Shown here one piece after another: positions 24,483 through 61,359 of a stretch of 64,000 nt of DNA (positions are counted from its first letter, which is position 1; every line of letters begins with the position of its first letter). A program made the position numbers and the translations under genes. Below the pieces are notes generated by a model. It was not told the origin of the DNA and searched no databases. It worked only from the letters and a program-made list of their open reading frames with translations. The DNA comes from Heptranchias perlo (taxonomy: Eukaryota): NCBI RefSeq assembly GCF_035084215.1, contig NW_027139581.1, positions 3,100,001 through 3,164,000 on the forward strand. The letters run 5' to 3'.

Positions 24483-24812
24483 ACTCAAAGGCCGATGATA
24501 TTCAGGTCCTGATGAATCGAGTGTCTCTATCAGATCTTGACGTGATGTTTGATTTGAGTTTCTGGTCTGTTAATCCTCCCCTTCTAGTGCCCTGTAAAAG
24601 GAGTTTACAAAAGTCATCACTGCAAATACAGGATAGAAATTCAGAACAGACAATTCCAGTTTCAATGGAACATTCTTTCATCTCTTGTTCCCCCAAAGCT
24701 GTAAATCCCCGTCCCACACACTCTCCCTCCTCCCTCTGCTGAAATCCAAACCCATCGCACCATTTCTAAATTCCATACTCCATATCCAGTTTTCTCACTC
24801 CCACTACTCCGG

Positions 24813-35321: not shown

Positions 35322-35444
35322 CTGTAAGGAAGAGAAAAACAGGGAATTATACTTCAGACTGAGAGTAAAAGCAGCAGCCTGGTCGAATTCAGGGTGAAAT
35401 GTTCAGCGTTATTATTGAATCCAGGGACAGAATCTAATTACTGG

Positions 35445-39061: not shown

Positions 39062-39182
39062 CAGGAACACCAACAGTAGCAAGGAGCGGATAGTAAATCT
39101 TTTGTACATCAAAAATTGCCCACAGAATCCGAAGTTCAGTTGGAACATACCAGAACATTCTTTCATCATCTCTGAGATCCAT
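39062..39182 (-). CDS. GPCR-1 exon 1 (MDLRDDERMFWYVPTELRILWAIFDVQKIYYPLLATVGVP)
   Basis: ATG at 39182, 121 nt, donor G|GTAAGT at 39061. Joins in frame to give GVPVN in TM1. TATA ~75 nt upstream of the ATG. Confidence 0.88.
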
Positions 39183-39251
39183 TGATCACTGTTTGACCTG
39201 GAGGCAAAGCTGCATCAAACACTCTGATGTGACGCCTTGAAAACAGTCCCT

Positions 39252-39331
39252 ATTTATATCTTGGGGGAACTCTCCAGTGTGACATTTAAACGACACAATG
39301 GCTGACATTAATTATAGTCACTGAACAAACA
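39252..39331 (-). promoter_or_regulatory. GPCR-1 core promoter (TGTTTGTTCAGTGACTATAATTAAT ... ATGTCA ... TATAAAT)
   Basis: TATAAA starts at 39258. Motif order and spacing are shared with 58700-58778. Confidence 0.7.
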
Positions 39332-39624
39332 GGTCAGGTTAATCCCTTAACACCATCACTCTATTATGGGTGAACAAGTAGTTTACTGACATGAAGTGAT
39401 GGTATCGATAATTCGAAATATTACTTCAAAAAACATCGTGAAGGAAGAAAATATGAATCCCGCAGTCTTACAGTACTGATGTGAAGAGAGAGCAGCTTTA
39501 CTGACAGTGTTCTGATTACTTCTGTGATATGAATTCAGCCTGCAATTTCAGGATTTTTCAAATCAGTTTCTGGGTTGGACTTAACAAATGTGCGAAAGAC
39601 AAAAAAGGATGGATAGAAGCAGAT

Positions 39625-41485
39625 CAAGTTATGGTCAGTAAGGATATGAGGGCGGATAATACAATGGTCAGTAAGGGTATATGGGGGCTGATAATACAAT
39701 GGTCAGTAAGGATACATGGGGTCTGATAATACAATGGTCAGTAAAGATACATGGGGGCTGATAATACAATGGTCAGTAAGGATACATGGGGGCTGATAAT
39801 ACAATGGTCAGTAATGATACATGGGGGCTGATAATACAATGGTCAGTAAAGATACATGGGGGCTGATAATACAATGGTCAGTAAGGATACATGGGGGCTG
39901 ATAATACAATGGTCAGTAAGGATACATGAGGGCTGATAATACAATGGTCAGTAAAGATACATGGGGCTGATAATTCAATGGTCAGTAAGCATAAATGGGG
40001 CTGATAATACAATGGTAGGTACGGATAAATGAGCGATAATAATACAATGGTCATTAAGGAAACACGGGGTCTGATAATACAATTGTCAGTATGGATACAG
40101 GAGAATGATAATACAATGGTCAGTTAGCATACACGGGGCTGATTATATAATGGTCAGAAAGGATGCAGGTGGATGATAATGCAATGGTCTTCAAGGATAC
40201 ATGACTCTGATAATGGAATAGTGAGTAAGGATACAAGAGGATGATAATACAATGGTGACTAAGGATACCGAAGGATGAAAATACAATGGTCAGTAAGGAT
40301 ACCGGAGGATGATAATACAGTGGTCAGTAAGGATACATGGGGGCTGATAATACAATGGTCAGTAAGGATACATCGGGGCTGATAATACAATGGTCAGTAA
40401 GGATACACGGGGTCTGATAATACAATGGTCAGTAAGGATATATGGGGGCTGATAATACAATGGTCAGTAAGGATACATGGGGGCTGATAATACAATGGTC
40501 AGGAAAGATACATGGGGGCTGATAATACAACGGTCAGTAAGGATACCGGAGGATGATAATACAATGGTCAGTAAAGATACATGGGGGCTGATAATTCAAG
40601 GATACATGACTCTGATGATAGAATAGTGAGTAAGGATACAAGGGGATGACAATACAATGGGAACTAAGGATACCGAAGGATGATAATGCAATGGTCATTA
40701 AGGATAGATGGGGCTGATAATACAATGTTCAGTGAGGATACATGGGGCTGATAATACAATGTTCAGTGAGGATACATGGGGCTGATAATGCAATGGTCCT
40801 GAAGGATAGGTGGGGCTGAATATATAATGGTCAGTAAGGATACATGGGGGCTGATAATACTCTGGTCAGTAAAGATACAGTAAGCTGATAATACAATGGT
40901 CAGGAAGGATATATGGGGCTGATAATACATTCGTCAGTAAGGATAAACGGGGTCTGATAAAACAATCTACATTAAGGATGTATGGGGCTCATCATACAAT
41001 GGCCAATGTTGATCCATGGGGCTGATAATACAATGGGCATTCAGTTCAAATGGGACTGATAATACAATGGTCAGTAATGCTACCTGTGGACTGATAATAC
41101 AGTGGTCTGTGTGGGTACACGGGTGCTAATAATACAATGATAAATAAGGGTATATGGTGTCTGATAAGACAATGGTCAATGAGGGTAAATGGGACTGATA
41201 ATACAATGGTAAGTACGGATAAATGGGGGCTGATTATACAATGGTCATTAAGGATACATTGATGCTGATAATACAATTGTAAGTGAGAATAGATGGGGTC
41301 TGATAATAAAGTGGTCAGGACGGATACATGGGGGCTGATAATACAATGGTCAGAGAGGATACATGGGGGCTGATCATACAATGGTCAGTCACGATACATA
41401 AGGGCTGATAATACAATGGTCAGTAAGGATACCTGGGGCTGATAATACAATGGTCAGTAAGGATACCTGGGGCTGATAAAACAAT
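39625..41485. repeat. 35-bp satellite, about 50 units (GATAATACAATGGTCAGTAAGGATACATGGGGGCT), upstream of GPCR-1
   Basis: Direct periodicity with patches of diverged units. Confidence 0.95.
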
Positions 41486-41489
41486 GAGT

Positions 41490-43205
41490 AAAAGGGCAGT
41501 CAAAGGAAGCGTGGGACTGATTTGGGACAAAAAGGAGATCTTCTTGTGGAGGCAGTGGGCATGGCTGAGGTACTAAATGAATGCTTCGCATCAGTCTTCA
41601 AGAGAGAAGAGGATGCTGCCACTGTCGCAGTAAAGGAGGAGGTAGTAGCGATATCAGATAGGGCAAAAATAGGTAAAGAGGAGGTACTTGAAAGGTTGGC
41701 AGCTCTCAAAATAGAAATATCACCCGATCCAAACTAGATCCATCCGATGTGACTGAGGAAAGTAAGGGTAGAAATTGCAGAGGCTCTGGCCACAATCTTC
41801 CAATCTTCCTTAGATATGCGGCAATGCCAGAGTATTGGAGGAACACAATTGCTATAACCCTGTTCAATAAAGGGGAGAGGGATAAACCCGGCAATTACAG
41901 GCCAATCAGCCTAACGTCAGTGGTGGGGAAACTTTTAGAGACAATAATCCTGGACAAAATTAATTTGCACTTGGAAAAGTATGGGCTAATAAGTGAATGT
42001 CAGCACGGATTTGTCAACGGAAAATCACGTTTCACTAACTTGATTGAGTTCTTTGATGAAGTAATGGAGAGGGTTGATAAGGGCAGTGTGGTAGATGTTG
42101 TAAATATGGACTTTCAAAAGGCTTTTCATGAAGCACCACTTAATAGACAAAATTGAAGCATATGGAATTAAAGGGACAGTGGCATTGTGGATACAATATT
42201 GGCTTATGGTCAGAAAGCGGAGAGTAGTGGTGAACGGTTGTTTTGCAGGACGGAGGGGAGCTTGCAGTGGTGTTCCCCAGGGGATGGTGTTAGGACCATT
42301 GCTCTATGTGATCTACATTAATGGCCTGGACTTAGATATACAGGGTATAATTTCAAAGTTTGCGGATGATACGTAACTCAGGAATGCAATAAGCAATGTG
42401 GAGAATAGTAACAGACTTCAGGAGGACAGAGTCAGACTGGTAAAATGGGCAGACACATGGCAGATAAAATTTAATGCAGAGAATGTGAAGTGATCCATTT
42501 TGTTCGGAAGAATGAGGAGAGGTAATATAATCGAAATGGTACAATTTTAAAGGGGGTACAGGAACAGAGAGACCTGGGGATTATGTACACAAATCCTTGA
42601 CGATGGCAGGACAAGTTGAGAAGGCTGTTGAAAAAGCACATGGGATCCTGGGCTTTATTAACAGAGGCATAGAGTACAAACGCAAGGAAATTAAGCTAAA
42701 CCTTTATAAAACACTGGTTAGGCCTCAGCTGGACAATTGTGTTCAGTTATGTGCACCACACAGGAGGAAGGAGGTGAAGGCCTGAGAGAGGGTGCAGAAG
42801 AGATTTACGAAAATGGTACCAGGGATGAGGGACTTCAGTTATGTGGACAGACTGGAGAAGGTGGGATTGTTCTCCTTCGAGCCGAGAAGGTGAAGAGGAG
42901 ATTTGATTGAGGTATTGAAAATCATGAACAATTTTGAGAGAATAAACAAGGAGAAACTGTTTCCATTGGCAGATGGGTCGGTAACGAGAGGGCACAGATT
43001 TAAGGTGATTGGCAAAAGAGCCAGAGGCGACATGAAGAAACATTGTTTTAATGCAGATCTTTGTAATGATGTGGAATGCACGGCCTGAAAGGATGGTGAA
43101 AGCAGATTGAATAGTAAATCTCAAAAGGGAATTGGATAAATACTGGAAAAGAAAAAAAATAGAGGCTCGAGGGGCTGAATGGCCTCCTCATGTTCCCATG
43201 TTCCG
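41490..43205 (+). mobile_element. CR1 LINE 3' ~1.7 kb, degenerate
   Basis: MAEVLNECFASVF, PGNYRPISLTSVVGKLLE, GVPQGMVLGP, SKFADDT, TRGHRFKV, followed by the CR1 tail. Confidence 0.9.
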
Positions 43206-43884
43206 AAGCTAACTCCACTTACCCATGATGCCTGTAATAGCCATATTATCATTGTTTAATGCTAAAACTCATATAGAACCACAGTTATTTTCCAACAATG
43301 GTAACTTATTTTAACCCTGGTGAATGGTTTTCCTCTTGAACGAACGATTGTCTTTGAAATGTGACACACACTGACCGCCCATTATTCTCCCATCATTGGT
43401 CACCGCCCACCAGCCGCCCTCTGTGTCCATGAAGATGAGTCTGACGGACAGATTAATCCCATTTTAAATGATCTTCCTCCACATTTACCAGGAATACAAG
43501 TGTCTGCCGCCTTCCACAAAGAGGCGCGAGGCATTGTCTGTGACTCCGTGCAGTCGCCTCGATGAGAAGTTCAAACCAATGGGAAGTAAGTCTAAAACTG
43601 CAGATACATCCTTGTGACTGTGGTGCCTGGATTTCTGTCCCATTCACCAATCACCTGGGGTATAGTAAAGATACATTGATCACCTATTCCTCTATTACCC
43701 GGACATTCTTGAGGCTAAGATCCTGCCCAGGTTTGGCTGCTCCCTGGGGAGCTCCTTTGCTCTGCATCTCTATCCTTGACCATCCGTTGCCATCCTTTGC
43801 CCTTTCTCCCCCAATCTCCTCTCTTCCACTGTTTAAGTTCCTCTGGCTCCAATCGTGGATGCATTTTAGCCCGAACTACAAGTT

Positions 43885-45340
43885 CAAGCTATACACCAGA
43901 TACATCGACGAAATTTTCTTTCGATGGACCCACGGTGAGGAATCACTAAAGAGACGACACGACAACATCAACAAGTTCCATCCCACCATCAAGCTCACCA
44001 TGGACTCCTCCTCAGAATCAGTTTCTTTCTTGGACACACGAATCTCCATCAAAGACGGGCACCTCAGCACCTCACTCTACCGCAAGCCCACGGACAACTT
44101 CACGATGCTCCACTTTTCCAGCTTCCACCCTAACCACGTCAAAGAGGCCATCCCCTGTGGACAGGCCCTGCGAATTCACAGGGTCTGCTCAGACGAGGAG
44201 GAACGCGATGGACACCTACAGACTCTGAAAGACGCCCTGGTAAGAACGGGATATGACGCTCGACTCATCGATCGACAGTTCCGACGGGCCACAGCGAAAA
44301 ATCGCACAGACGTCCTCAGAAGACTAACACGGGACGCAGCCAACAGAGTACCCTTCGTCGTCCAGTACTTCCCCGGAGCGGAGAAACTACGCCATGTTCT
44401 CCGCAGCCTTCAACATGTCATCAATGACGACGAACACCTCGCTATGGCCATCCCCACACCTCCACTACTCACCTTTAAACAGACACCCAACCTCAAACAG
44501 ACCATCGTTCGCAGCAAATTACCCAGCTTTCAAGAGAACAGCGTCCACGACACCACACAACCCTGCCACGGTAACCTCTGCAAAACATGCCAGATCATCG
44601 ACACAGATACCACCATCACACGAGAGGACACCACCCACCAGGTGCATGGTTCATACTCCTGTGACTCGGCCAACGTTGTCTACCTCATACGTTGCAGGAA
44701 AGGATGCCCCAGAGCATGGTACATTGGCGAGACCATGCAGACACTGCGACAACGGATGAACGGACACCGTGCAACAATCGCCAGACAGGAGGGTTCCCTC
44801 CCAGTCGGGGAACACTTCAGCAGTCAGGGACATTCAGCCACCGACCTTCGGGTAAGCGTACTCCAAGGCGGCCTTCGAGACACACGACAACGCAAAATCG
44901 TCGAGCAGAAATTGATAGCCAAGTTCCGCACCCATGAGGACGGCCTCAACCGGGATCTTGGGTTCATGTTACGTGACACGTAAGCCCACCAGCGAACAAT
45001 ATCTATCTGTTTTTAATATAACGGTTCATTTGCTTTCTTTCTGTGCCTTCCGGATGTTTCTGCCTCTCTCTGTTTTTTTTTCCTGTTTGTTTTTTTTGTT
45101 GAATGTATATTCGGGGGTTCTGTTGGTAACACCTCTCTGGCTGAACACGGTGATTGCCTTGGCAACGGGCAGTTGCAAAGGCTGTCTGTAATCACCATGT
45201 ATTGTTCTGTGATTTATAAATGCGTAGGCTTCGAGGAGTTCCTGACATTTACCAGAGGAAGGATGAAGCCTCCGAAAGCTTGTAGATTTCAAATAAAATC
45301 GTTGGACTATAACTTGGTGTTGTAAAATTGTTTACAATTA
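43885..45340 (+). mobile_element. Penelope-like retroelement, 5'-truncated (RT C-terminus + GIY-YIG endonuclease, open to 44983) with 3' pLTR
   Basis: RYIDEIF (YIDD-type), FLD..I, LYRKPTD, C-x4-CKTC linker, NVVYLIRC...WYIGET (GIY-YIG), HF..GH, GLN. Confidence 0.93.
45248..45286 (+). ncRNA. Degenerate minimal type I hammerhead ribozyme motif (core CAGAGGA instead of CUGANGA)
   Basis: TTTAC-CAGAGGA-A-GGA(TGAAGCC)TCC-GAAA-GCTT-GTAGA. Stems I and II can pair, but U4 is mutated. Confidence 0.6.
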
Positions 45341-45344
45341 AATT

Positions 45345-45800
45345 CCCATGGCAAGCTATTCTACCTTGTCCAAAACAGTAGGACCAGCGGGCACGGTCTG
45401 CACTTGAAGGGGATAAATTCAAAACTAATCTGCAGAAATAATATTTCAGTGAGCGAGTGGCCAAAGTGTGGAACAGATTCCCTTCGGGAGACAGTGGAAG
45501 CAGTTGGATCGATTTCTTTCAGAAAATATAGGATACAGTATAAGAGTGATATGGGACATGACATGTGGTTAGTGTAACATGGTTGGGAGGAACAGGTAAC
45601 TTTGGACCTATGGTTCCTGAAGCTCTCCACCACTGGGGTTTCCCTCCCCTCATGCCTGGGTCTGATGTAGATTAATTGATAGAGATTGATTGTCATGATT
45701 AATCAACAACTCCATTATCATTATATCATGTGACTACCCAGGATGGTAGAAGATCAACTAGATGGACCTTGGTCTTTCTTTCCTTTTGGAATTCCTATGT
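45345..45800 (+). mobile_element. Diverged CR1-like 3' end fragment
   Basis: AGGACCAGCGGGCAC..TTCAGTGAGCGAGTGG..TGGAACAGA resembles the TRGH/FS.RV/WN C-terminus of CR1 ORF2. Confidence 0.45.
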
Positions 45801-46276
45801 TCCAAAAAGCACAAGGCCGCTTTTGAAATGGGAACCGCGTCTGTAACTTGTCACGCTGCAATTACACCCTCCCACCAGCAGTGGCACTGCAGCGCCTTCA
45901 CTGGCAAGAGAATGCAACTGCATCATGCCAAGTTACATTGGCGTTTCCCATTCTTCGGCTCAAATTTGATGATTCTGTGCATATTAACATGCCAACTGTA
46001 AATCGACAGTTTTCCTCCTCACTATCAACCACACGGTCAATTTTTATATCATCTGCAAACTTCTTGATCAAGACTTTCATGTAGAAAAACGACCCAAGGC
46101 GCTTCACAGATGCATAATCAGATATAAATGGACACTGAACTACAGAATGATGTATTATGAGGATCGGCCGAAAGCTTGGGCGAACAGGTGGGTTCCGAGG
46201 AGGGTCTTGAAGGAGGTGTTTAACCATGTATGTAAAAAAAAACATTAAAAAATCACAATGAACAGGTCTGCTTTGG

Positions 46277-46756
46277 AATATTCAGCCACCGATCTTCGGG
46301 TAAGCGTTCTCCAAGGCGGCCTTCGAGACACACGACAACGCAAAATCGTCGAGCAGAAGTTGATAGCCAAGTTCCGTACCCATGAGGAAGGCCTCAACCG
46401 GGATCTTGGGTTCATGTCACGCGACACGTAACCCCACCAGCAAAAAGGGGAAAAAAAAGTTATGTTTTTAATATTCTCTCTCTCTCTCTCTCTGCCATTT
46501 GGGTTTCTTTCTGTCTGTTTGTTAAATTGACACAATGTATATCCAGTGTACTGGGACGTGCTGTTCTCCGTGACTGGCCTGTTTGAACAACAACGACACC
46601 TTTTGATTGGTGTGATGGTGTCCCAGCCCAGTTTCAGATATGCGATTTGAGAACCTTTTCACTCATTCACCTGACGAAGGGGATAATCTCCGAAAGCTTG
46701 TGATTTTAAAATAAATTTGTTGGACTATAACCTGGTGTTGTAAGATTCCTTACATT
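46277..46756 (+). mobile_element. Second Penelope-like fragment (GIY-YIG C-terminus + pLTR)
   Basis: 46280-46440 is nearly identical to 44832-44992. It ends AAATAAA..TGTTGGACTATAACCTGGTGTTGTAA, like 45291-45325. Confidence 0.88.
46667..46703 (+). ncRNA. Minimal type I hammerhead ribozyme motif in the Penelope pLTR
   Basis: TCAC-CTGACGA-A-GGGG(ATAAT)CTCC-GAAA-GCTT-GTGA. Intact CUGANGA/GAAA core, stem I TCAC/GTGA, palindromic AGCT stem III. Confidence 0.75.
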
Positions 46757-46779
46757 TGCTTTGGAATACACAGAGGAAG

Positions 46780-47196
46780 TCCCGCTCACCCAACACCACT
46801 GTCCTCGCTGTCCCACATTGTTTTCCAGTTCCCCAACGCCTCCAATTTAAAATTCTCATCCTCGTCTTTAAAACCCTCCATGGCCTCACTTTTCCCTATC
46901 TCTGTAATCTCCTTCAGCCCTACAACCCTCCGAGATCTCTGCACTCCTCCAATTCTGGCGTCTTATCCACTCCCACACTTTTCTTCCAACCATTGGCGGC
47001 CGTGCCTCCATCCGTCTAGGGCCCAAGCTCTGGAATTCCCTCCCTAAACCGCTCCATCTCCTTCAAGACCCTCCTTGGAACCCACCTCTTCGCCCAAGCT
47101 TCCGGCCGATCCTCATAATACCTCATTCTGTAGTTCAGTCTCCATTTCTATCTGATTATGCATCTGTGAAGCGCCTTGGGTTGTTTTTCTACATGA
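46780..47196 (+). mobile_element. L2-type LINE 3' end
   Basis: VLAVPHCFPVPQRLQFKILILVFKTLHGLTFPYLCNLLQPYNPPRSLHSS. Confidence 0.8.
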
Positions 47197-48130
47197 AAGT
47201 CTTGATCAAGAAGTTTGCAGATGATATAAAAATTGACCGTGTTGTTGAGAGTGAGGAGGAAAGCTGTAGACTGCAGGAAGATATCAATGGACTGGTCAGA
47301 TGGGGAGAAAAGTGGCAAATGGAATTCAATCTACAGAAGTGTGAGGTAATGCATTTCGGGACAGACAAGGCAAGGGAGTACACAATAAATGGGAGGATAC
47401 TGAGAGGTTTAGGGGAACAAAGGGACCTTGGAGTGCATGACCACAGACCCCTGAAGGTAGCAGGATAGGTAGATAAAAAGGTTAAAAAGGCATATGGAGT
47501 ACATTCCTTCATTCGCCAAGGCATAGAATAGAAGAACAGGGAGTTTATGCCAGAACTGTATAAAACATTGGTCAGGCCACAGCTTGAGTGCTCCGGACAG
47601 TTCTGCCCACCACGTTACAGGAACAACGTGATTGCACTCGAAAGAGTACAGAGGAGATTTACGAGGATGTTGCCACTTCTGGAGAATTTTAGCGATGAGG
47701 AAAGATTGGATGGGCTGGGTTGTTTTCTTTGGAACAAAGGAGGCTGAGGGGAGATTTAATTGAGGTGTATAAAATTATGACTGGACGAAACAGAGTGGAC
47801 AGGGAGGACCTATTTCCCTTAGCGGAAGTGCAATTGACCAGGGGCATAGATTTCAAGTGATTGGTAGAAGGATTGGAGGGGAGCTGAGAAGAATCTTTTT
47901 CACCCAGAGGTTGGTGGGGTCTGGAACTCAATGCCTGAAAGGGTGGGAGAGGCAGAAATCCTCAACTCATTTAAAAAGTACTTGGATTTGCACTTGAAGT
48001 GCCATAACCTACACGGCTATAGACCAAGTGCTGGAAAGTGGGGTTAAGCTGGATAACTCTTTTTAGGCCGGCACGGGCACGATGGGCCGAATGCCCTCCA
48101 TCTGTGCCGTAACTTTCTATGATTCCATGA
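47197..48130 (+). mobile_element. CR1 3' fragment
   Basis: KKFADD, WQMEFNLQKCEVMHFG, LYKTLVRPQLE, ERVQRRFTRMLP. Tail TTCTATGATTCCATGATT. Confidence 0.9.
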
Positions 48131-48590
48131 TTCAGCCCCTCAAATCTGTAACACGGGAACAGTAGGAAGCCTCGTCAGATCCCCTCCCTGTTACATTGGA
48201 ACAGGAGGATGCCCATTAATCCCCTCGAGCCTGTGACACAGGAACAGGAGGAGTCCATTCTGCCTCTCAAGCCCATTACACAGGAACAGGAGGAGTCCAT
48301 TCTGCCTCTCAAGCACATTGCACAGGAACTGGAGGAGTCCATTCAGCCTCTCAAGCTTGTTACACAGGAACTGGAGGAGTCCATTCTGCCTCTCAAGCCC
48401 ATTACACAGGAACTGGAGGAGTCCATTCTGCCTCTCAATCCTTTTACACAGGAACAGGAGGAGGCCATTCTGCCTCTCAAGCCCATTACACGGGAACAGG
48501 AGGAGGCCATTCTGCCTTTCAAGCCTGTTACAAAGGAACAGGAGGAGGCCATTCTACCACTCGAGCCTTTCCCGCCATTTTATTAAATCT
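48130..48590 (-). repeat. 42-bp minisatellite, about 10 units, derived from an antisense CR1 3' terminus
   Basis: The unit ACACAGGAACAGGAGGAG(G/T)CCATTCTGCCTCTCAAGCCCATT matches the reverse complement of GCTCGAGGGGCTGAATGGCCTCCTCCTGTTCC. It continues into single-copy CR1 tail sequence at 48590-48660. Confidence 0.88.
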
Positions 48591-48739
48591 TTGCCGATCT
48601 GTATCTCACTCCATTTCCCCGCCTTAGCTCCATATCCCTCGATCCCCAGACCAAATTAAATGCGAGGTTTTATGACTTACTACTTTGTACTGAAAACAGA
48701 ATCTGATCCTGTTCAGAAACTAGAAACCAGGGAAACAGA

Positions 48740-49560
48740 CAGACTAAGTGAGTGGGCAAAACTGGGGCAGAATTTATGTTTAATGTGGGCAAGTGTGAGA
48801 CCATCCACTTTGGGTCAGGGAAAAACAAAGGAGAAAATTTTCTTAATGGGGAGAGATTAGGAACCGTGGATGAGCAGAGAAATTTGGGGTTCAAGTACAC
48901 AATTCACCAAAATTAATCAAAAGCCTATTGGGCTGTTGGCCTTTATCTCAAGAGGGCTGGAATACAAAGGTGGTGGAAATTATGGTGCAATTGTTTGGAG
49001 CTCTGGTTAGAACCCATCAGGAGACTGTCTTCAGTTCTGGGCACCGAACCTCAGGAAGGGTATATTGGCCTTGGAGGGGGAGCAGCACAGATTCACCAGA
49101 ATGATACAGGGGCTTAAATCGCTACATTATAAGGACAGGTTGCATAAAATTTGCTTGTATTCCCTTTAATTTAGAAGGTTGTGGGGATTTCTGATCGAGG
49201 AGTTTAAAATGATCAGGGGATTAGATAGGGTAGATACGGAGAAACTATTTCCTCTGGTGGGGGAATCCAGAGCAAGGGGGCTAATCTTAAAATTATAACT
49301 AGGCTGTTCAAGGGAGATGTCAGAAAGCAGTTCTTCTCAAAAAGAGTAGTCGAAATCTTGAACCGTCTCCCCCAAAAGGCTGTGGATGCTGGGTGTCAAT
49401 TGAAGCTTTAAAGACTGAGATTGATAAGGTTTTTGTTGGGTGAGGGGATCAAAGGATACGGAACAAAGGCGAGTAAATGGAGTTGAGGTCCAGATCAGCC
49501 ACCATCTAATAGAATGGCGGAACAAGCTGGTGGGTCTGAATGGCCTCCTCCTAACCCTAT
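48740..49560 (+). mobile_element. Degenerate CR1 3' fragment (similar to 6320-7230)
   Basis: DRLSEWAK..., GGCTGGAATACAAA, CAGATTCACCAG and the CR1 tail. Confidence 0.8.
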
Positions 49561-49679
49561 GCTCATGAGTGATTAATGTTAGCGGTCTGGCAAGCACCAC
49601 AAGTGGGGTCTAATAGCGTCGACCCCGCCCCCCACAACAGCTTGTTACAACAACAATTTGCCCCTGTGCTAGATCCTGC

Positions 49680-51361
49680 GGTAAACTTTAAAGAGGAGAG
49701 GTGTGAAATGTTGTATCAGGTGAACATAACGAGAGAGGAAGCACTGGAGGGACTGGAATCTTTGATTGTTCATAAGTCACCAGGGCCGGATGGATTGTTT
49801 CCTCGGCTATTGAAGGAAACCGGGGAGGAAATAGCGGATGCTCTGAGGATCATTTTCCAATCCTCACTAGATACAGGGGAGCTCCCGCAGGACTGGAATA
49901 CTGCAAACGTAGTACCATTGTTTAAATAGGGTACGAGGGAAATGCCGAACAATTATGGGCCGGTCAGTCTTACCTCGGTGGTGGGCAAACTATTAGAATC
50001 AATACTGAGAGATAGGATAAACTGTCACTTGGAAAGACATGGTTTAATCAGGGATAGTCAGCATGGATTTGTTCAGGGAAGGTCATGCCTGACAAATCTG
50101 ATTGAATTCTTTGAGGAAGTGACAAGGAGGATTGATGAGGGTAGTGCAGTGGATGTTGTCTACCTGGAATTTGGTAAGGAATTTGACAAGGTCCCACATG
50201 GCAGACTGGTCAGAAAGGTAAACTTCCATGGGATACAGGGAAATGTGGCAAATTGGATCCAAAAATTGGCTCAGTAACAGGAAACAAAGGGTCAAAGTCG
50301 ATGGATGTCTTTGCGAATGGAAATCCGTTTCCGGTTGTGTGCCACGGGGCTCAGTGTTGGGTCCCTTGCAGTTTGTGGTATATGTTCATGATTTGGACTT
50401 GAATGTCCGGGGCATAATTGGCAAATTTGCAAGCAACACAAAAATTGGATGTGTGGTTGATCGTGAAGAGGATAGCTGTGGACTCCAAGAAGATATCAAT
50501 GGGTTGGTGGTGTGGGCGGAAAAGTGGCAAATGGAGTTCAACCCGGAGAAGTGTGAGGTAATGCACTTAGGGAAGGCAACCAGTAAAAGGGAATACGCAA
50601 TAAACGGGAATATATTGAGAGGGGTAGAGGAAGTGAGAGACCTTGGAGTGTATGTGCACAGGTCCCTGAAGGTGGCAGTACAGGTAGATAAGGTTGTGAA
50701 GAAGGCACACGGAATGCTCTCCGTTATTCGCCGAGGTATAGAATACAAAAGCAGGGATGTAATGATGGAACTGTATAAAACGCTGGTAATGCCACAGCTG
50801 GAGTATTGTGCGCAGTTCTGGTCACCACATTACAGAAAGGACGTAATTGCTCTGGAGAGAGTGCAGAAGAGATTTAAAAGAATGTTGCCAGGCCTTGAAA
50901 ATTGCAGCTGCAAGGAGAGATTGGATAGGCTGGGGTTGTTTTCCTTGGAGCAGAGGAGGCTGAGTGGAGACTTGATTGAAGTGTACAAAATCATGAGGGG
51001 CCCAGGTTGAGGAGGCAGGAAGTAACTGTTTCCCCTAGCGGATAGTTCAAGAACAAGAGGAAATAGATTTAAACTGATTGGCGGAAGGATTGGAGGGGAC
51101 ATGAGGAAAAGCTTTTTTTACCCAGAGGGCGGTGGGTGTATGGAATTCGGTGCCCGAATTGGTGGTAGAAGCAGGGACCCTCAACTCTTTTAAAAAGTAC
51201 CTGGATCTGCACCTAAAGTGCTGTAAGCTGCAGGGCTACGGACCAGGTGCTGGGAGGTGGGATTAGAATGGGCACATGGTTGTTCTTCGAGCTGGCGCGG
51301 ACACGATGGGCCGAATGGCCATCTTCTGTGCTGAATCTTTTCTATGGTTCTATGGTTCTAT
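49680..51361 (+). mobile_element. CR1 LINE 3' ~1.7 kb, frameshifted
   Basis: KSPGPDG, SQHGFVQGRSCLTNLIEFFEEVT, PQLEYCAQFWSP. Tail TTCTATGGTTCTATGGTTCTAT. Confidence 0.92.
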
Positions 51362-52048
51362 CCCTTTTCAAAGCACTGATGTTGTCTCCCTTCCCGTTAG
51401 GTATTTTCACCGCTGAATTTCATTTGCCCCTTTCTATAACTACTTTAATCCAAATTATATTATGATCACTATTACCCAGATGTTCTCCCAATGAAACTCA
51501 GTCCACTTGCCTTACTTCATTCCATAACACTGGATCCAGCACCGCCTCCTTCCTCTTTGGGCTAGAAACATACTGATTAAGAAAGTTCTACAAAACACAT
51601 TTTAGGAATTTTTCACCCTTCTTGCCCTTTACGATGTTGTTCCCCCCAGTCTTCTCTGTTTCTGTGGAAATAATTCCAATATCTGACCCGAAGACAGTTT
51701 CCCTTCCTCGGCTTCATTCGATTCAATCGACACTGTGCTCTCTATGGCTTTAATGTAGTTTCTATAATGGGATGCACAAAGCTGCACACAATACTCTGGA
51801 ATTGTGGGCCAACCCATGTTTTGTACAAATTTGTCATTGCTTCTTTATATTTGTACTGTGTGACCCAACTTATAAAGTTCAAAATGCTGTTTGCATTTGT
51901 TTATGATTTATGGAGCTGCCGTCACAATTCCATGGAATTATACATTTAAGTACTTAATTCTCACTTTTACTCAACATCATTCGGCGTCTTTTCATTAACT
52001 GTATACACAAATTCATTGATTTGCTTCCAATATCTATCACTTTACATT
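51362..52048 (-). mobile_element. Old antisense CR1 fragments
   Basis: The reverse complement includes LDPV..N / DHN-like and EYCVQLCASHYR sequence. Confidence 0.5.
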
Positions 52049-52049
52049 A

Positions 52050-55028
52050 CAGAGTGGAGCTACAATAGGGGGTGATGTGCAGCCAAATATCGAGAAAAAA
52101 ACAAGTCAGCTTGGAAGACAGGGCAAATATGTGAGGGCAAGGCTGGATGGCATCTATTTTAATGCAAGGAGTCTTGCGAATCAGGTGGATGAACTGAAGG
52201 TGTTGATAAACACATGGGAGTATGATATTGTTGCTGTCACAGAGACATGGTTGAGGGAGGGGCAAGACTGGCAGCTCAATATTCCGGGGTACAGAATCTT
52301 CAGGCGAGACAGAGGGGGAGGTATAAGAGGAGGGGGGGTCGCAATATTAATTAAAGAATCAATTACTGCCATAAGGAGGGATGATATATTAGCAGGTTCC
52401 TCTAATGAGGCCATATGGGTGGAGCTTAAAAACAAAAAGGGGGCAAGCACTTTGATGGGAGTGTACGATAGGCCCCCAAACAGTCAGGGGGAGATAGAGA
52501 AACAGATATGTAGGCAAATCTCAGAAAATTGTGCAAATAATAGGGTAATAATAGTGGGGGATTTCAACTTCCCCAATATTAACTGGGATACTCAGAGTGT
52601 AAAAGGCTTAGAGGGTACAAAATTCTTAACGTGCATCCAGGAGAGCTTTTTGAGCCAGCATGTAGAAAGTCCTACAAGAGAGGGGGCGGTACTGGACCTA
52701 ATTCTCGGGAATGTGGCCGGCCAAGTGGAAGAAGTGCTATTAGGTGAGCACTTTGGTGACAGTGACCATAATTCGGTGAGATTTAAGGTGGTCATGGAAA
52801 AGGGCAGGGAGGGGACGGAAATAAAGGTTCTAAATTCGGGGAAGGCCGATTTTAATAGGATAAGGCAGGATCTGGCCAAAATGGACTGGGATCAGCTGCT
52901 TGTAGGAAAATCCGCATCGGAGCAATGGGAGTCTTTCAGAAGGGAGATTGAGACCATACAATGGCAACATGTTCCCGTAAAGGTCAAGGGTGGTTCCAAG
53001 AACTCCAGGGAACCTTGGATGTCAGGGGATATACGAGAATGGATTAGGAAAAAAAGGAGGGCTTTTGGCAGATACAAAAGGCTAAAGACGGAGGAAGCCC
53101 TAGAGGAGTACAAAAAGTGCAGGGGGATACTTAAAAAAGAAATTAGGAGATCAAGGAGGGGCCATGAAATAACACTGGCGAGCAAAATAAAGGAAAATCC
53201 TAAGATGTTTTATAAGTATATTAAGGGTAAGAGGATAACTAGGGAAAAAATAGGGCCCATTAGGGACAAAAATGGCAATCTGTGTGTGGAGCCGGCAGAT
53301 GTAGGAGGGGTTCTAAATGAATTTTTTGCATCTGTTTTCACTATGGAGAAGGACGATGTAGACATAGAAATACGGCAGGGGGACTGTGATATACTCGAAC
53401 ATATTAACATCGAGCGGGAGGAGGTATTGGCGGTTTTAGCAGGCCTAAAAATGGATAAATCCCCAGGCCCGGACGAAATGTATCCCAGGCTACTCTGTGA
53501 GGCAAACGAGGAGATTGCGGGGGTTCTGACACATATATTCAGAACCTCTCTGGCCACAGGGGATGTGCCAGAGGACTGGAGAACCGCTAATGTAATACCA
53601 TTATTCAAGAAGGGGAGTAGGGAAAAACCGGGGAACTACAGGCCAGTGAGCCTAACATCAGTGGTAGGAAAATTATTGGAAAAAATTCTGAAGGACAAAA
53701 TTAGTCTCCACTTGGAGAAGCAAGGATTAATCAGGGATAGTCAACATGGCTTTGTCAAGGGAAGATCATGTCTGACTAATTTGATTGAATTTTTTGAGGG
53801 GGTGACTGGGCGTGTGGATGAGGGTAACGCAGTGGATGTGGTATACATGGATTTCAGTAAGGCCTTCGATAAAGTCCCCCACAGGAGACTGGTCAAGAAG
53901 GTACGAGCCCATGGAATCCAGGGTGCCTTGGCACTTTGGATACAAAACTGGCTTCGTGGCAGAAGGCAGAGGGTGATGGTCGAAGGTTGTTTTTGTGACT
54001 GGAAGCCTGTGGCCAGTGGGGTACCACAGGGATCGATGCTGGGTCCCTTGCTGTTTGTGGTCTACATTAATGACTTGGATATGAATGTAAAAGGTATGCT
54101 CAGTAAGTTCGCTGATGATACAAAGATTGGTAGGGTGGTAAATAGCGAGGAGGATAGCCTCAGTCTGCAGGACGATATAGATGGGTTGGTCAGATGGGCG
54201 GAACAGTGGCAAATGGAATTTAACCCGGAAAAGTGCGAGGTGATGCACTTTGGAGGGACTAACAAGGCAAGGGAATAGACAATGAATGGGAGGACCCTAG
54301 GCAAGACAGAGGGTCAGAGGGATCTTGGTGTGCAAGTTCACAGATCCCTGAAGGCGGCGGAACAGGTAGATAAGGTGGTAAAGAAGGCATATGGGATACT
54401 TGCCTTTATTAGCCGAGGCATAGAATATAAGAGCAAGGAGGTTATGATGGAGCTGTATAAAACACTGGTTAGGCCACAGCTGGAGTACTGTGTGCAGTTC
54501 TGGTCGCCACACTACAGGAAGGATGTGATCGCTTTGGAGAGGGTGCAGAGGAGATTCACCAGGATGTTACCAGGGCTGGAGCGCTTCAGCTATGAAGAGA
54601 GACTGGGAAGATTGGGTTTGTTTTCCTTGGAGCAGAGGAGGCTGAGGGGGGACATGATTGAGGTGTACAAAATTATGAGGGGCACAGATAGGATGGATAC
54701 TAAGAAGCTTTTTCCATTCGTTGAGGGTTCTATAACAAGGGGACATAGATTCAAGGTAAAAGGCGGGAGGTTTAGAGGGGATTTGAGAAAGAACTTTTTC
54801 ACCCAGAGGGTGGTTGGAGTCTGGAACTCACTGCCTGAAAGGGTTGTGGAGGCAGGAACCCTCACAACATTCAAGAAGCATTTGGATGAGCACTAGAAAT
54901 GCCATAGCATACAAGGCTACGGACCAAATGCTGGAATATGGGATTAGAGTAGACAGAGCTGATGGCCGGCGCGGACACGATGGGCCGAAGGGCCTCTATC
55001 CGTGCTGTATAACTCTATGACTCTATGA
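52050..55028 (+). mobile_element. Young CR1 LINE with an essentially complete ORF2 (APE + RT), two premature TAG stops, no ORF1
   Basis: One frame 52077-54947 with stops only at 54276 and 54894. YFNARSL, TETWL, GDFNFP, SDHN, QHGF, GVPQG, FADD. (ACTCTATG)2 3' terminal repeat. Confidence 0.95.
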
Positions 55029-56214
55029 CATACAACTGCCTCGTGTCTGCTCAATCCAGCCAAGCTGCCTGCATCGTTCTTTAATGTTGTTATAGTCTTC
55101 CTCATATTTTGCCAAACCCTGCTTTTGTTTCTCAGCAAAATTAGAGATTGTCTAAGTCCAAATCATCTCGAGAAGCAGTGGGAGTTAGTGGGGTTTGGCA
55201 CATGGACATTCCTTGATTAACCCGAGCACTGCTACCTGCTCCTCAGTTTTAGATCTAATGATGGATCCTAAGAGTTTCTCCACAAACAAGATTGGAACCT
55301 TTGGTCTACACGTATCCAATGGATTTCTCTCTCCCTCCCGTACCAAAAACACCAATCTAATTTCATACCAAGACACCACAATGTCAGAACATACTGGGCC
55401 TTTCTCAATCATCCCCAGGGAGAAGTGATATCGTAGATTGGATGGCAAAAAGTGAAACAGTCCCTAACCGAAGAGACTAACTATTAAAGCTTCATCCGAG
55501 TCATCAGCCAGGGTGCAGTAAAATGTGTTATAACCAAAGAGAAAAAAGACAAATAATTAATAAATCTTCATCTTCGTAACTGTAGCTGGTTTCATCTTAG
55601 CTAGCAGACTCCCTGAAGGTTGCCTCACAGTGGGACAAACCTATTTCAATGTGCTGTCTGTGGACAAACCAATTTATGTTGTTCGAACAAAAAGATTTCT
55701 CCGAGTAGCTGCCGATGTTAATGTATCTCATCAAATCCGCCTATTATATAAATCTCTTTCTGATACAAGAATATTAGCCCAGAAATTACTTTTGCTCATA
55801 CAGTGGACAACTAATTAACACATTCCAATGAAAATCAGGAACAACTTGCATTCACAGACCGCCTTTAATGTAATAAACATTCCCAAGGGGATTCACAGGG
55901 GCTGGAAGTAAAACAGGCACAAACGGAATCAGGAGGGATGATGAAATCCTTCGGCAAGGAGGGTTTAAGGGGGGTGTAAAACGAGAGACGAAGGGGATCA
56001 GGTTGGTTTTAGTTGTGTGAAGGAATGGCCACCAATGGTGGGATGAAGACAGAGGAGGATGGTAAAGTATAACAATAACTACCTGGATTGATAAAGCGCC
56101 TTTAACATGGATAAAAGTTAAAGGTGCTTCACAGAGATATCATCCGACAAAAATGGACCCCAGCCAAGGATGGGGATATTCGTAGAGGGACAAAAGCTTG
56201 GAGCAAGAGATGGA

Positions 56215-56673
56215 TAGAAAGAAAGAAAGAAAGTTACATTTATTAAGCGCATTTCACAATCTCAGTATGTCCCAAAGTGCTTTGCAGCCAAAGAAATACT
56301 GTTGTAATGTAAGAAACACAGCGGGCATACTGCACACAGCAAGATCCCACAAACAGCAATGTGAAATTGAACAGATCATCTGGTTTTAGTGATGTTGATT
56401 GAGGCATAAATATTGGCCAGGCCAGCGGGGAGAACTTCCCTGCTCTTCTTCGAATAGTGCCATGGGATCTTGTACATCGACTTGAGGGGTCAGACGGACC
56501 CTCGGTTTAACGTCTCATCTGATGAAGGACTGCACCTGTGACAGTGCAGCATTACCTCAGTACAGCACTGAACTGAAGATTTTGTGTTGAAGTCGCTGAA
56601 GTTGGTCTTGAACGCACAAACTTCTCATCTTCTAACTCAGAGGCAAGAGTCCCACCCACTGAATCACAGCTGA
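56215..56673 (-). mobile_element. tRNA-headed SINE with a Deu-domain-like core and L2-like tail (SacSINE1/AmnSINE1-related)
   Basis: On -: A-box-like TGATTCAGTGG, B-box-like GTTCAAGACC, core GATGAGACGTTAAACCGAGG...AGATCCCATGGCACTATTCGAAGAAGAGCAGGG, (TTTC)n end. The family name is recalled from known consensus, not searched. Confidence 0.72.
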
Positions 56674-56679
56674 CACCTG

Positions 56680-58200
56680 AAAGGGAGTAATGTAGATGGG
56701 AGAACTTTGGGAGCACACCTGGGGCGTGGACGTGGCTTCAGGTTCAGCTGCCAAAAGTAGGGCAAAGAGATTGTGGATACACAAGCAGCCAGAGGTGGAG
56801 GAGAAGAGAGAGGGGCTGTAAAACTGGAGGAGGTTGCAGAGATAGGGAGGGGTGAGGCTCTCATGTATTTAAGCGTAAGGAAGAAAACGATAAAGACTTA
56901 GGAGACTGGAAGCCAATGCAGGTCAGTGAGGGCTTGGATGATTGGTGAAGGAGATAGTGAGGGATAGGTTACAGACAGCAGAGTTTTGGATGAGTTGAAG
57001 TTTTTGGAGATGCCGGAGAGGAGAACAAAGGCCAGAGAGGGTAGAAAGGCATGGCTAAGGGTTTTAGTAGCAGATTATCAAGGCGAGTGGAACGGGTGTT
57101 ATTACGGACCCGGAAGAAGGCGGTCTTTGTGATGGAGAGGATATGGGATCAGAAGCTCAGCACGGGGTCGAATGGGACGTCAAAGTTACGAACAGTGAGT
57201 TTCAGCCTCAGACAAAAGCCAGGCATGGGGATGGAATCAGTGCCGAGGATTTGGAGATTGTGGGGCCAAAGGTCATGACATTCCAATTGTAACTGGAGGA
57301 AATTGTAGCTTATTTAAAACAGGTTGTCGGTCTGATAACACAAAGACATTGGAAAGGTCGACAGGGGCGGTGATTTTGTCCACGTTCAACTGAAAGCAGG
57401 TCCATGTTTGCAGACGAAGTCACCATAGATGAGGAAAAGGGATAGGTTACAGACAGCCTTGATAATCTGCTACTAAAACCCTTAGCCATGCCTTTCTACC
57501 CTCTCTGGCCTTTGTTCTCCTCTCCGGCATCACCATGTAGATGAGGAAAAGGAGGGAGCCGAGGATTGAACCTTTAGAAACATCAGAGATAACGGTGGTA
57601 GGGTGGGAAGAGAAGCTTCTCCCGGTTACGATCAGATCATTGAGTGGAAACAAGCGAGGGTCGTCCCACCAAAAGAGGACAATGTCTGATGAATGAGGAG
57701 GTCATGGGTGGATTTGCTGTAGGTGCTTGGGGAAATGTTCATGGTTATGTGGAAAGAGCAAGATGGTGGGACTAATTGAATAGCTCTTTCAAAGAGCCGG
57801 CACAAGCAAAATGGGTCGAATGGCATCCTTCAAATTCGATGAATTAATTTGTGGTGGGGTGGGGGGCGGATGCAGAGGGGTGGCCCATGGACGAATTTAA
57901 AATCAAGGATGAGAATTTTAAATTTCAGGGATATGGGAGTGGGTGCCAGTGAGGGTCAGTGAGGCCGAGCGGGACCTGGTGCTGGTTGGTCACAGGCAAC
58001 AGAGATTTGGACGAGCTCAGGTTTATGGAAGGTGGAGGATCGGTGGCCGGCCAGGACTGTATTGGAGGAATGGAGTCTGGAAGGGACAGAGGCATGGATG
58101 AGGGACTCAATGGCAATGGGCTGAGGAAGGAATGGAGGCGGGTGAGGGAAACAGGGGGCCTTTGTGATGGAGGTCAAATCAGGTCATCAGTTCAGCTCGG
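56680..58200 (-). mobile_element. Highly degenerate L2-type LINE
   Basis: ISDVSKGSILGSLLFLIYM (GVPQGS.LGP.LF..Y) and IESLIHASVPSRLHSSNTVLAG (LVHAFVTSRLDY.N..LAG-like). Confidence 0.7.
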
Positions 58201-58699
58201 CGTTACACGGGGCCAATTTTACTGGACCCGTTAACCAATGTAGAATAAACGGGTAAACACCTGCAGTAAAATAGCGGAGAGTGGAATCCCAATGGGGCAC
58301 TTTCAGTCTCCGTCCCCTAATATCACCCACAGTCATTTCTAGGCTGCAATCCTCAACCTGCCCTTTAACTCTCCTCGTGTCGGAGACTCAAAATTCATAT
58401 TTTGACTGGGAAACTGCAGGAACAGAGTGAAACGGGTCTGGTTGAGTCCCTGGATTTAATGTACACTGCGGATAAATCGGTATACATTATAAATGAATCG
58501 CCAAGAGTGAACATGACCAATACAATTATATGAAAACTGTGAATGAAGCCGCTCATTATTGTTGGATCAGTCCTGTATGAGCACAGATTTTAACTTTATT
58601 CCTGAGAGAGGTCTCATTAAGATAATGTCCTGGACTTTGAGATGTTTGTGTTATATCCACCACATTATTTATATCGGAGTCAAAGCTGCTGATGTAATG

Positions 58700-58778
58700 T
58701 GTTTGTTCAAGTGACTGTAACTAATAGCAATGATCAGGAGTATAACCATGTCAGTGTCGACTTGTCCCCTGTATAAAT
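58700..58778 (+). promoter_or_regulatory. GPCR-2 core promoter (TGTTTGTTCAAGTGACTGTAACTAAT ... ATGTCA ... TATAAAT)
   Basis: TATAAA at 58772. Same motif order and spacing as 39331-39252. Confidence 0.7.
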
Positions 58779-58862
58779 CAGGGTTCATTGGAATTCATCA
58801 GTTCAGGGCGTCTTCTGGAGTTATGTTTACCAGACCAACAGAAGTGACAGCTTCTCACAGAA

Positions 58863-58932
58863 ATGGGATATCCAGTAATATTTCAGATAGAAGACATTTA
58901 CTATCCTGCCCTTTCAGCCGTTGGAGTGCCGG
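58863..58932 (+). CDS. GPCR-2 exon 1 (MGYPVIFQIEDIYYPALSAVGVP)
   Basis: GAA-ATG-G start, 70 nt, donor G|GTAAGC at 58933. IYYP...VGVP matches GPCR-1 exon 1. Confidence 0.88.
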
Positions 58933-61359
58933 GTAAGCTGTTATCTCAGCTGATAATGGCGTAAATCGGTGTTAACTGTGCTGCTGTCCTTGGCGAAATA
59001 TTTTTTCTCCCTGCATGTTTTGCACGGTGGCCTGAGCTGCTCTACCAGTTTAATGATGGAATGTGTTAAGTTGGTCTTGTTGGAGCTGGTCTGTAATGAT
59101 CTTTGGAAATCCAACCCTGGCATTGTTACTGGGTGTACTGAATGTACACTACTCTGTACTGAATGTACTGTTCAATAACTGAATGTACTGTTCAATAACT
59201 TCTAAACGTTCGGTCTTGTCGCAATTCCATTATATCTGCAATGACCTTTGTATATCCCAAACTGGCATTGTTCCTGGATTATTCTCTGTACTGAATGTAT
59301 TGGAATCAGGTGTCTGGACTAAGAGATGGTATCAGACCATCAGGAGCTGTTAACAGTTTCATGTTGTGGAACTAACGTGTCCTGGAATATTTTTTCATAA
59401 ATGTGTTTTCAGTGATTGATAATGAGACAGCTCACGGTCTCAGTGTTCCAAGAAGGCAGAGCAAAGTCCCCCTTCCCCAATAACATGGTTCAGTTTAACA
59501 GGGGTTTCAGTCTATTTATTGGTTATCACTTATGAAATGTTATTTCATTGCGTTCATCTGACAGAGCTCCAGTTGTCTGGCTTCTGTATTGAGTTTGTTG
59601 CTGAATCTTTCACATCTCCTTTTCTGCTTCACTGTGGATGAATTCATTCTAAGATACAATGTTTTGGTGTTATGCTGTGTCAGTTTGCACTGTAACTGTT
59701 GGAATCCTGAGTCCTTCTATTTATCTGTGAATTCTGAGCAGCAGCGGTGACGTTGGCGTTTTGTTTGAAGAACAACACCGCTATCTAATGGTGCACTTTA
59801 TAATTACAGGAGAAGAATTTCAATCATTGTGAAATCTGGAAGATGTATTTCTTCCATGATTTTACAGATTTCTATGTTTCTTCCATGATTTGCAGATGAA
59901 GCAAACAGCGTAGGCGAACAGGAGGAAACTTGGAAATCTGTAGTAACAGTAAACTATTCCACAGAGGCTTCACTATTTAACAAACTGACACTGAGAATAG
60001 GATCCGTGGAACACGGGGCTGGTGAACAGAATGTAGGGGCAGGAAGTTAGGATTGAATCGAAAGTGAAAAGGGCGCATTGAGAAAGAGAGTAGAGAGGGC
60101 AGAATAATAGATAGAAGAGCGAGAGTGCAATAAAACCCTCACAATCTGACAACTAATAGATAGAGAAGCGATAGAGACTGAGGCGGAGAGGGAAAACGAG
60201 AGGGGGGAGGAGGAGCGTGAGACGAGAAAGAGAGAGAAAGAGAGAAAGGGAGAGACAGAGAGAGAATGAGAGAATGAGAGAGAGAGCGAAAAAGCGACAG
60301 CAGGGTGAATAATTCATCGGAATGAACTGCTGAAACTTCCAGTACAATTATGAAGAGGAAATGTGACTTGAAGATGTTAATAGGAAGTTGTCAGATTGTG
60401 AGAGTTTTATTGCACTCTCGCTGGGTGTGTTTATCGTTATCAGGACCTCAGTCTGTTTTGGTGATTGTTACTTTTCCTTATTCACTGACTGAATAAATAA
60501 ACATAATTCAAATGTATTTAAAGAATAGAATCAGTGATTTTTTGATCCTAATGAATTATTATGATACTGTATTCTAAAAACTCGGTATCAGCGGAATTCA
60601 ATGAAGAACGAGGTTGATTTAATGAATACATTTTGATTTAATTTTAATTGAATGTGCAAATTAAATTTAATGAGCACATTTTATAGCCAATGAGCGGTTC
60701 CCTGACACCAATAACCACTGAAATGAACTGTTGAATTTATTAGTTGGATTGTGTTAGTGGGGTCTATAGATTAGATTTCCTCTCACATTCTGCTGCAGTC
60801 TCTCCCTGTGAATCCCAGTCTCTCCAACCACCACATTGAATCCTCTGTCTCCTCATCCATTGCTTCAGTTCATCCGCTTTCTCACACCAGCTGTTCCTGA
60901 CTCCCTTCCAGCCACTCTCGGCCTTTCCCCGTTTTGTGCCAACCCCTGTCGGTTCTCTTAACCCAGGGCAACAAATCAGCTGCACCTCCGCCTATCCCCT
61001 CACCTTCCCAGCCTCTGCTCTCTTTCCCGTCAGTCTGGAGCCAAATCCGACTTTAACCTGTTGGATTCCCGCTCGGTAAAACTCCTTCTCCCTTCCCCAC
61101 CGGCACTGCGCTCTCACTCGGCCCTTCCAGTGGATCCGGTGCTCATTTATTCACTTTCTTTATCGATTTCACAATTCATTATTTATAATTGAGTTTAAAA
61201 ACATCTCTCTTCCTGAAAGCGCTCTCCAGGTGAATGAATCAGTTTCCACCGTTCGATGCAGGAACAAAGCTGGAAATTTAACCCCAGATCCTGTCAAATT
61301 GCTGCTTTGGCTCCAGGTCTGATCAGTAATTTCTATGCTTCCTTTTCTCTCTCTTACAG

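Follow-up and report, generated by a model that had tools for sequence, protein, structure and literature searches.

The stretch of DNA analysed here (hereafter the window) comprises 64 kb of the Heptranchias perlo genome and carries two class A G-protein-coupled receptor (GPCR) genes, gene 1 on the minus strand and gene 2 on the plus strand, arranged head to head with their TATA boxes 19.5 kb apart. We describe a short block of DNA located at nearly the same distance upstream of these two TATA boxes and the evidence that it probably belongs to a promoter common to a large receptor family. Each gene is composed of a short coding exon 1, a phase-1 intron situated early in the first transmembrane segment (TM1; intron of 3.7 kb in gene 1 and 2.4 kb in gene 2) and a long exon 2, as follows.

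39062..39158, minus strand: gene 1 coding exon 1, with a phase-1 donor; start at ATG 39158 as in the RefSeq relatives P0122 and P0123, another in-frame ATG being present at 39182
34423..35321, minus strand: gene 1 exon 2, with the 7tm_1 domain; spliced product of 331 amino acids, open frame
58863..58932, plus strand: gene 2 coding exon 1, with a phase-1 donor; same Met start in RefSeq relatives, junction present in a paralog contig of sequencing run X8
61360..62264, plus strand: gene 2 exon 2, with the 7tm_1 domain; spliced product of 324 amino acids, open frame

This layout agrees with that of the RefSeq relatives. Both products contain the Pfam domain 7tm_1 (PF00001; E values of 1e-18 and 1e-23) and are 55% identical to each other (178/321), and no NCBIfam family was assigned to either of the two proteins. 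Protein searches returned 2355 and 2808 clusters at E ≤ 0.001 for the two genes, counts that take in distant GPCRs, and the description of the family rests on 240 sequences listed from these searches. The 239 of them that bear a name all come from sharks or rays and are mostly called "probable G-protein coupled receptor 139"; the closest relatives among the matches listed, 94% and 97% identical, are both from H. perlo. Judged by these matches, genes 1 and 2 are members of the shark and ray family named "probable GPR139" in RefSeq. Multiple GPR139 copies are reportedly mentioned in the 2019 white shark genome paper. GPR139 has two exons with an intron in TM1 and is single-copy in mammals, unlike the very large shark and ray family that RefSeq names after it. 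The resemblance rests on a weak match (45 bits, E value of 8.5e-11), GPR139 (PDB 7VUG and 9M42) being the best solved-structure match for the family member P0004.

An unrooted tree was built from 61 of the 240 top-matching sequences (162 passed the core filter, and every third of these was kept together with chosen near relatives). Genes 1 and 2 are placed on opposite sides of a long branch (length 0.565, support 1.0), and nine ray proteins found on the gene 2 side share 65-68% of residues with gene 2 but 53-58% with gene 1. With a rough clock, these data suggest that the duplication separating genes 1 and 2 would predate the shark-ray split. In many relatives within the gene 1 subfamily (proteins P0127-P0157 and others), the N terminus contains a 14-residue repeat with an N-x-T sequon, present one to five times, which may form a glycosylated extension of variable length.

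Neither a third paralog nor a stray first exon was detected in the 64-kb window by tblastn with 120 relatives. Searching for the exon-1/donor pattern gave 0 matches in viral contigs and 0 in metagenome contigs, and a protein scan of the metagenome contigs gave 569 pattern matches with 0 confirmed relatives. A literature search on GPR139/GPR142 in cartilaginous fishes, by title and start of abstract and with most subscription papers outside its coverage, found none that treats these receptors or the promoter described here. The passages searched of PMC12294341 do not deal with them either, and neither "139" nor "gpr" occurs in those searched of PMC11979771 and bioRxiv 10.1101/2022.10.17.512540.

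Upstream of both genes, a first-pass annotation of this DNA had proposed a promoter signature with matched spacing. Its components are listed below, positions with a sign being counted from the TATA box.

39252..39258, minus strand: gene 1 TATA box TATAAAT, identified as a sequence word
58772..58778, plus strand: gene 2 TATA box TATAAAT, identified as a sequence word
39307..39331, minus strand: gene 1 proximal element, -73 to -49, with the forkhead-like word TGTTTGT, GTGACT and TAATTAAT; 23 of 26 columns as in gene 2
58700..58725, plus strand: gene 2 proximal element, -72 to -47
39280..39285, minus strand: gene 1 ATGTCA at -27, a TALE-like word with TGGAGA and a C run after it
58748..58753, plus strand: gene 2 ATGTCA at -24, with G in place of the A in most matching contigs

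The two proximal elements align over 26 columns, of which 23 are identical and one is a gap. The proposed spacing was recovered, since the block starts 73 nt before TATAAAT in gene 1 (from 39331, minus strand) and 72 nt before it in gene 2 (from 58700, plus strand), and its leading 10-mer, TGTTTGTTCA, occurs in the 64 kb at the two promoter sites only. The similarity also exceeds that expected from shuffled DNA, as the 100 nt preceding the TATA boxes gave an alignment score of 38, above all of 1000 dinucleotide shuffles (maximum 36). As a control, 53 TATA-like sites of the window were compared pairwise; 22 of the 1378 pairs scored 38 or more, with top scores of 97-196 that suggest overlapping or repeated DNA, and nothing is concluded from this comparison. 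The smaller words of the signature were found at the expected places (ATGTCA at -27 and -24, TCCCC at -10 and -7, AGGG at +7 and +8), and gene 1 has a second copy of ATGTCA at -50. However, the first letter of the gene 2 ATGTCA (58748) is less secure than proposed, being G in 93%, 82% and 98% of the contig depth of three runs. What the promoters putatively have in common is the core TGTCA with TGGAGA and a C run behind it.

A TATAWAW word in sense orientation is thus available in both genes (39258, minus strand; 58772, plus strand), and words resembling the initiator consensus occur at equal offsets in an ungapped alignment, namely TCA at +26..28 and TCAG at +31..34. The regions concerned are the following.

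39224..39232, minus strand: gene 1 predicted initiator region; start predicted from sequence at 39230 or 39225
58798..58806, plus strand: gene 2 predicted initiator region; start predicted from sequence at 58800 or 58805

From this arrangement we infer that TATAAAT would be a working TATA box, with transcription starting about 28-33 nt downstream.

Factor sites in the block were assigned by matches to consensus words. The forkhead word TGTTTGT and the TALE word TGTCA reported previously are present in both genes, whereas the homeodomain word TAATTA occurs in gene 1 only, at -56; all of these are common words. An NKX2-like word in gene 2 only and a POU4-like word with an exact core in gene 1 only were left unassigned because they are not common to both genes. 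The analogy drawn with the Lhx2/EBF code of odorant-receptor (OR) promoters was not borne out: neither TCCCNNGGGA, with one mismatch allowed, nor a looser O/E word was found between -400 and +100 of either gene. Because no EBF site was found, this promoter is not of the odorant-receptor type.

The comparison with OR promoters can be specified from Young et al. (2011, PMC3247239), in which enriched O/E (EBF) sites, together with homeodomain sites, are described as the main mark of mammalian OR promoters. The receptors studied here resemble that system in that members of a large rhodopsin-class family have a cis vocabulary in common close to the start. A homeodomain-like word is present in gene 1 but absent from the block of gene 2, and TATA boxes occur in a subset of OR promoters according to that text. 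By contrast, a forkhead-like word leads the block here and no O/E site accompanies it, and the same source describes statistical enrichment where an alignable block is found here. Expression of one receptor per neuron is a trait of ORs; the matches of the shark family are named as GPR139-like, not as OR.

The first-pass annotation had further stated that no similarity can be seen in the introns and wider flanks. This proved to be wrong. Segments of genes 1 and 2 were compared by local alignment against 1000 dinucleotide shuffles, and collinear homology was found upstream of the element, in the 5' untranslated region (UTR) and at both intron ends. The score was reached by none of the 1000 shuffles for -300..-100, -100..0 and the two ends of the intron (first 100 nt, last 150 nt), by 2 for the 5' UTR and by 9 for intron positions +100..400. 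No similarity was detected in -1000..-500 (760 of 1000 shuffles reaching the score), -500..-300 (885), intron -400..-150 (436) and the 3' flank (432 and 90). The aligned blocks are as follows.

39420..39512, minus strand: gene 1 upstream homology block, -254 to -162; score 43, 0/1000 shuffles
58532..58626, plus strand: gene 2 upstream homology block, -240 to -146, from local alignment
39001..39061, minus strand: gene 1 homology block at the 5' end of the intron; score 43, 0/1000 shuffles
58933..58992, plus strand: gene 2 homology block at the 5' end of the intron, from local alignment
35322..35439, minus strand: gene 1 homology block at the 3' end of the intron, before the acceptor; score 64, 0/1000 shuffles
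61237..61359, plus strand: gene 2 homology block at the 3' end of the intron, from local alignment

The homology is therefore blockwise and coincides with functional landmarks, namely the promoter, the 5' UTR, the donor and the acceptor, being absent from the 3' flank and from most of the intron, and upstream the alignment of the two genes ends at about -255. The motif does not stand alone but marks the summit of a far broader stretch of homology. Because parts of the introns and flanks are homologous too, the right null model is descent from a shared ancestor and not shuffling. The over-long RefSeq models of five other paralogs (P0003, P0011, P0018, P0050 and P0072) translate a similar 5' UTR. 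It should also be noted that the intron ends are kept between the subfamilies well past the splice signals, over 60 nt at the 5' end and about 120 nt at the 3' end, and may contain splicing or enhancer elements.

That a fragment of some mobile element or dispersed repeat reached both genes by insertion, and not by descent, is very improbable. Very many look-alike contigs exist (see below) and the window is rich in LINE-type open reading frames (ORFs) and satellites, as such an origin would have it; yet the homology continues in collinear order through the 5' UTR and exon 1 into the intron, the block keeps the same offset to the TATA box in two old subfamilies, blastn detected no second copy of positions 58250-58870 in the window, and Rfam gave 0 matches in 57800-59300.

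To extend the comparison to other paralogs, we used public contigs matched to positions 58250-59150 at 80% or more likeness, from three DNA runs (X4, X5 and X6) that represent three organisms. Look-alike contigs numbered 1537 in X4, 232 in X5 and 223 in X6 and reached 520 nt upstream or further. At single upstream positions dozens of different contigs are found (those with the same alternative letter at 58672 number 68 in X4, 27 in X6 and 17 in X5), and several long pieces join the promoter to exon 1. Because many contigs cover it and long pieces reach exon 1, the promoter region must be repeated together with the gene. Letters were compared at the 33 variant positions listed between 58516 and 58988 (of 40 listed, the variant table having 363 further rows), in 22 of which most of the X4 depth differs from gene 2. 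At these 22 places, among them the first letter of the gene 2 ATGTCA, gene 1 has the majority letter in 13, the gene 2 letter in 4 and neither in 5. Because gene 1 agrees with the majority at 13/22, the subfamilies are closer to one another in consensus than the gene 1/gene 2 pair suggests. The proposal that the element is family-wide thus gains support from the contigs of three organisms, the deep split between the subfamilies and this agreement of majority letters. A search for other promoters translated as spurious ORFs, made with the 41-codon antisense frame over the gene 2 motif, gave no candidate.

The depth of these contigs was summed over 29 bins, a quantity that gives no copy number and serves as a hint only. 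In X6, the two bins covering the motif (58684-58745) are the highest of the 29, with 3234 and 2613 compared to a median of 634, and in X4, X5 and X6 alike the depth dips sharply at +36..+66 of the 5' UTR. Another region stands out further upstream of gene 2.

58312..58435, plus strand: gene 2 further upstream blocks (58312-58373 and 58405-58435), with heavy look-alike coverage in X4 and X5

These two blocks have the highest summed depth in X4 and a high one in X5 and are not alignable in gene 1; each is a candidate for a subfamily-specific enhancer or a short repeat.

We consider it probable that the block is the best-conserved part of an ancestral proximal promoter common to the family, likely kept by selection, and predicted to be bound by forkhead and homeodomain-type factors in a restricted cell type. 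Several observations weigh against this reading. Four-fold degenerate sites of the two genes are identical at 48 of 80 positions (60%; synonymous divergence, dS, of 0.58-0.72), a window of 23/26 arises in 14% of simulated alignments of 430 columns at 60% identity (P about 0.14), and the -72..-1 segment as a whole is 65% identical (46/71), near the four-fold level. Neutral simulations (six settings, 400 runs each) reached the promoter score in 3-56% of runs and kept the spacing within 1 nt in 10-41%. The X4 run is possibly the sample behind the window and hence would not be independent, the listed variant positions give no per-base profile inside the motif, and the motif bins rank 4th and 7th of 29 in X4 and 2nd and 6th in X5, where blocks further upstream rank higher. 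Regarding the factor words, about 0.8 forkhead, 0.25 homeodomain and 1 TALE occurrences are expected per 500 nt, and the gene 2 block has no TAATTA or TAATKR word. Finally, homology in the 3' flank could have been lost through insertions or at a duplication boundary.

An alternative explanation is leftover homology, in which the gene cassette was duplicated, shark DNA evolved slowly and gene conversion acted among hundreds of paralogs, so that the block is the best-looking window and only the TATA box and splice signals are selected. The four-fold identity and the frequency with which neutral runs reach such a window and the promoter score are in agreement with it, as are the length of the homology (about 550 nt) and the upstream reach of the look-alike contigs; gene conversion is also raised by Stewart and Lane (2007, PMC1955453) for the long unbroken homology of V1R promoters. 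Neutral descent of the gene pair taken alone is compatible with the data, and the pair is not decisive. However, neither the 3' flank nor the bulk of the intron can be aligned, though both are equally old. At a neutral divergence K of 0.57 with few insertions and deletions, 3' flank scores as low as those observed occur in 0.7% and 0% of 400 runs, and at K 0.72 with many of them each of five conserved blocks reaches its score in only 0-3.5%. No single neutral setting makes both the conservation of the blocks and the loss of the 3' flank likely. Leftover homology also has to accommodate the agreement of gene 1, which belongs to the other deep subfamily, with the contig majority letter at 13/22 positions and, as a hint only, the X6 depth peak on the motif and the depth dip shared by the three DNA runs. 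The contrast with the 3' flank, the majority-letter agreement and the X6 peak would favour selection, and we infer that the block owes its conservation to selection rather than to descent with gene conversion; leftover homology is the strongest of the alternatives but seems rather unlikely.

A different objection to the proximal promoter arises from run X8, which is RNA by guess and whose 9 records on the gene 2 stretch are uninformative on expression. Straight after the end of exon 1, the loose tail of record 26 agrees with 24 of the first 25 nt of exon 2. Because this tail continues into exon 2, the predicted junction is used in the splicing of a paralog. Record 26 itself begins at 58492, which lies 280 nt upstream of the TATA box, and records 23 and 24 extend further upstream, so that RNA of that paralog in the X8 sample appears not to start only at the predicted site. 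Transcription might accordingly begin near a second TATAAAT of gene 2 (58488-58494, 284 nt upstream of the main one and with no counterpart in gene 1) or near the blocks at 58312-58435, which have the top summed depth in X4, in which case the element would be conserved but would lie in a 5' leader or act as a distal enhancer; record 26 joins 58492-58737 to exon 1 and to the spliced junction, as expected from such a start. We regard this as improbable. Contigs cannot show starts and may combine mRNA with read-through transcripts, the interval -400..-1 of gene 1 contains no TATAWAW word, gene 1 has no alignment with gene 2 beyond about -255, and TATA and initiator-like words are canonically spaced in both genes. 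Moreover, the leader would hold several upstream ATGs (in gene 2, at -42 and -24). Within the 5' UTR predicted from the proximal start, gene 1 has an upstream ATG at 39215 (minus strand) that opens a 9-codon in-frame upstream ORF, and gene 2 has one at 58823 (plus strand) that is out of frame, overlaps the main frame and shows G in 43% of the X4 depth.

Among known receptor families, the promoter homology of mouse V1R genes is a closer precedent than OR promoters. By Stewart and Lane (PMC1955453), this homology is described as extending over 0.5-1 kb, mostly within subfamilies and with variable starts, and motifs common to different subfamilies required a special tool. As here, V1Rs form a large GPCR family grown by duplication, in which islands of non-coding homology occur both at the promoter and immediately ahead of the coding exon, and the part played by selection as against recent duplication and gene conversion is likewise in question in that text. 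An upstream island common to many paralogs, as in V1R genes, was also found here through the look-alike contigs, the pieces joining promoter to exon 1 and the blockwise homology. Unlike the homology described there for V1Rs, the TATA-anchored block aligns directly across two subfamilies that are 55% identical in protein; the receptors here are moreover GPR139-like, and their starts are predicted rather than mapped. Promoter elements common to large GPCR families are already known, and what is new is an element alignable across two ancient subfamilies.

Taken together, these data are compatible with the following scheme. A core promoter with a TATA box, transcription starting some 28-33 nt downstream of it, would be paired with a composite element located about 75-100 nt upstream of the start, and the further conserved blocks out to -255 would belong to the same promoter unit. 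This unit would be copied with each gene duplication and likely held by selection, so that new receptor variants stay in the cell type of the family. The predicted partners of the block, a forkhead factor and one of homeodomain type, would activate all members of the family in a restricted cell type. Given the rest of this scheme, that cell type may tentatively be taken as chemosensory, on the basis of the family size and of the resemblance to GPR139, an assignment we hold with less confidence than the promoter itself.

An extended form of the scheme, which we consider unlikely, would be an overlooked chemoreceptor system of sharks and rays. Hundreds to more than 1000 GPR139-like genes would carry their own ancient forkhead/homeodomain/TALE cis code on a fixed-spacing TATA promoter without EBF; this code would license the paralogs in one sensory cell type, where promoters would compete for the choice of one receptor per cell, and the logic of odorant receptors would have arisen independently. 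Cartilaginous fishes, whose classical odorant-receptor repertoires are described as small (PMC6368271 and PMC10116579), carry this very large GPCR family. The cross-subfamily element would provide a practical handle, as it could be used to find paralogs and their first exons by DNA, to predict starts and footprints and to build a reporter for the cell type. Zebrafish, which had been suggested for such reporters, is a foreign host because all 239 named relatives listed are sharks or rays. Should the element reflect merely inherited similarity, the finding would be an ordinary one.

The space between the two promoters contains LINE-type ORFs and a minisatellite.

39631..41486, strand not applicable: minisatellite with a 35-bp unit in 54 copies, from 373 nt upstream of the gene 1 TATA box

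No tandem array is listed upstream of gene 2 in the repeat listing of the window, so that not every gene of the family has such a satellite. A long endonuclease/reverse-transcriptase ORF with one stop (52020-54896), which we take from its translation to be of LINE type, and a second ORF (43544-44983), presumably Penelope-like on the same grounds, both lie between the promoters. The receptor pair is flanked by a cluster of ORFs at 3077-3871, 13325-14665 and 23697-24569, whose C2H2 zinc-finger family was read from their repeats.

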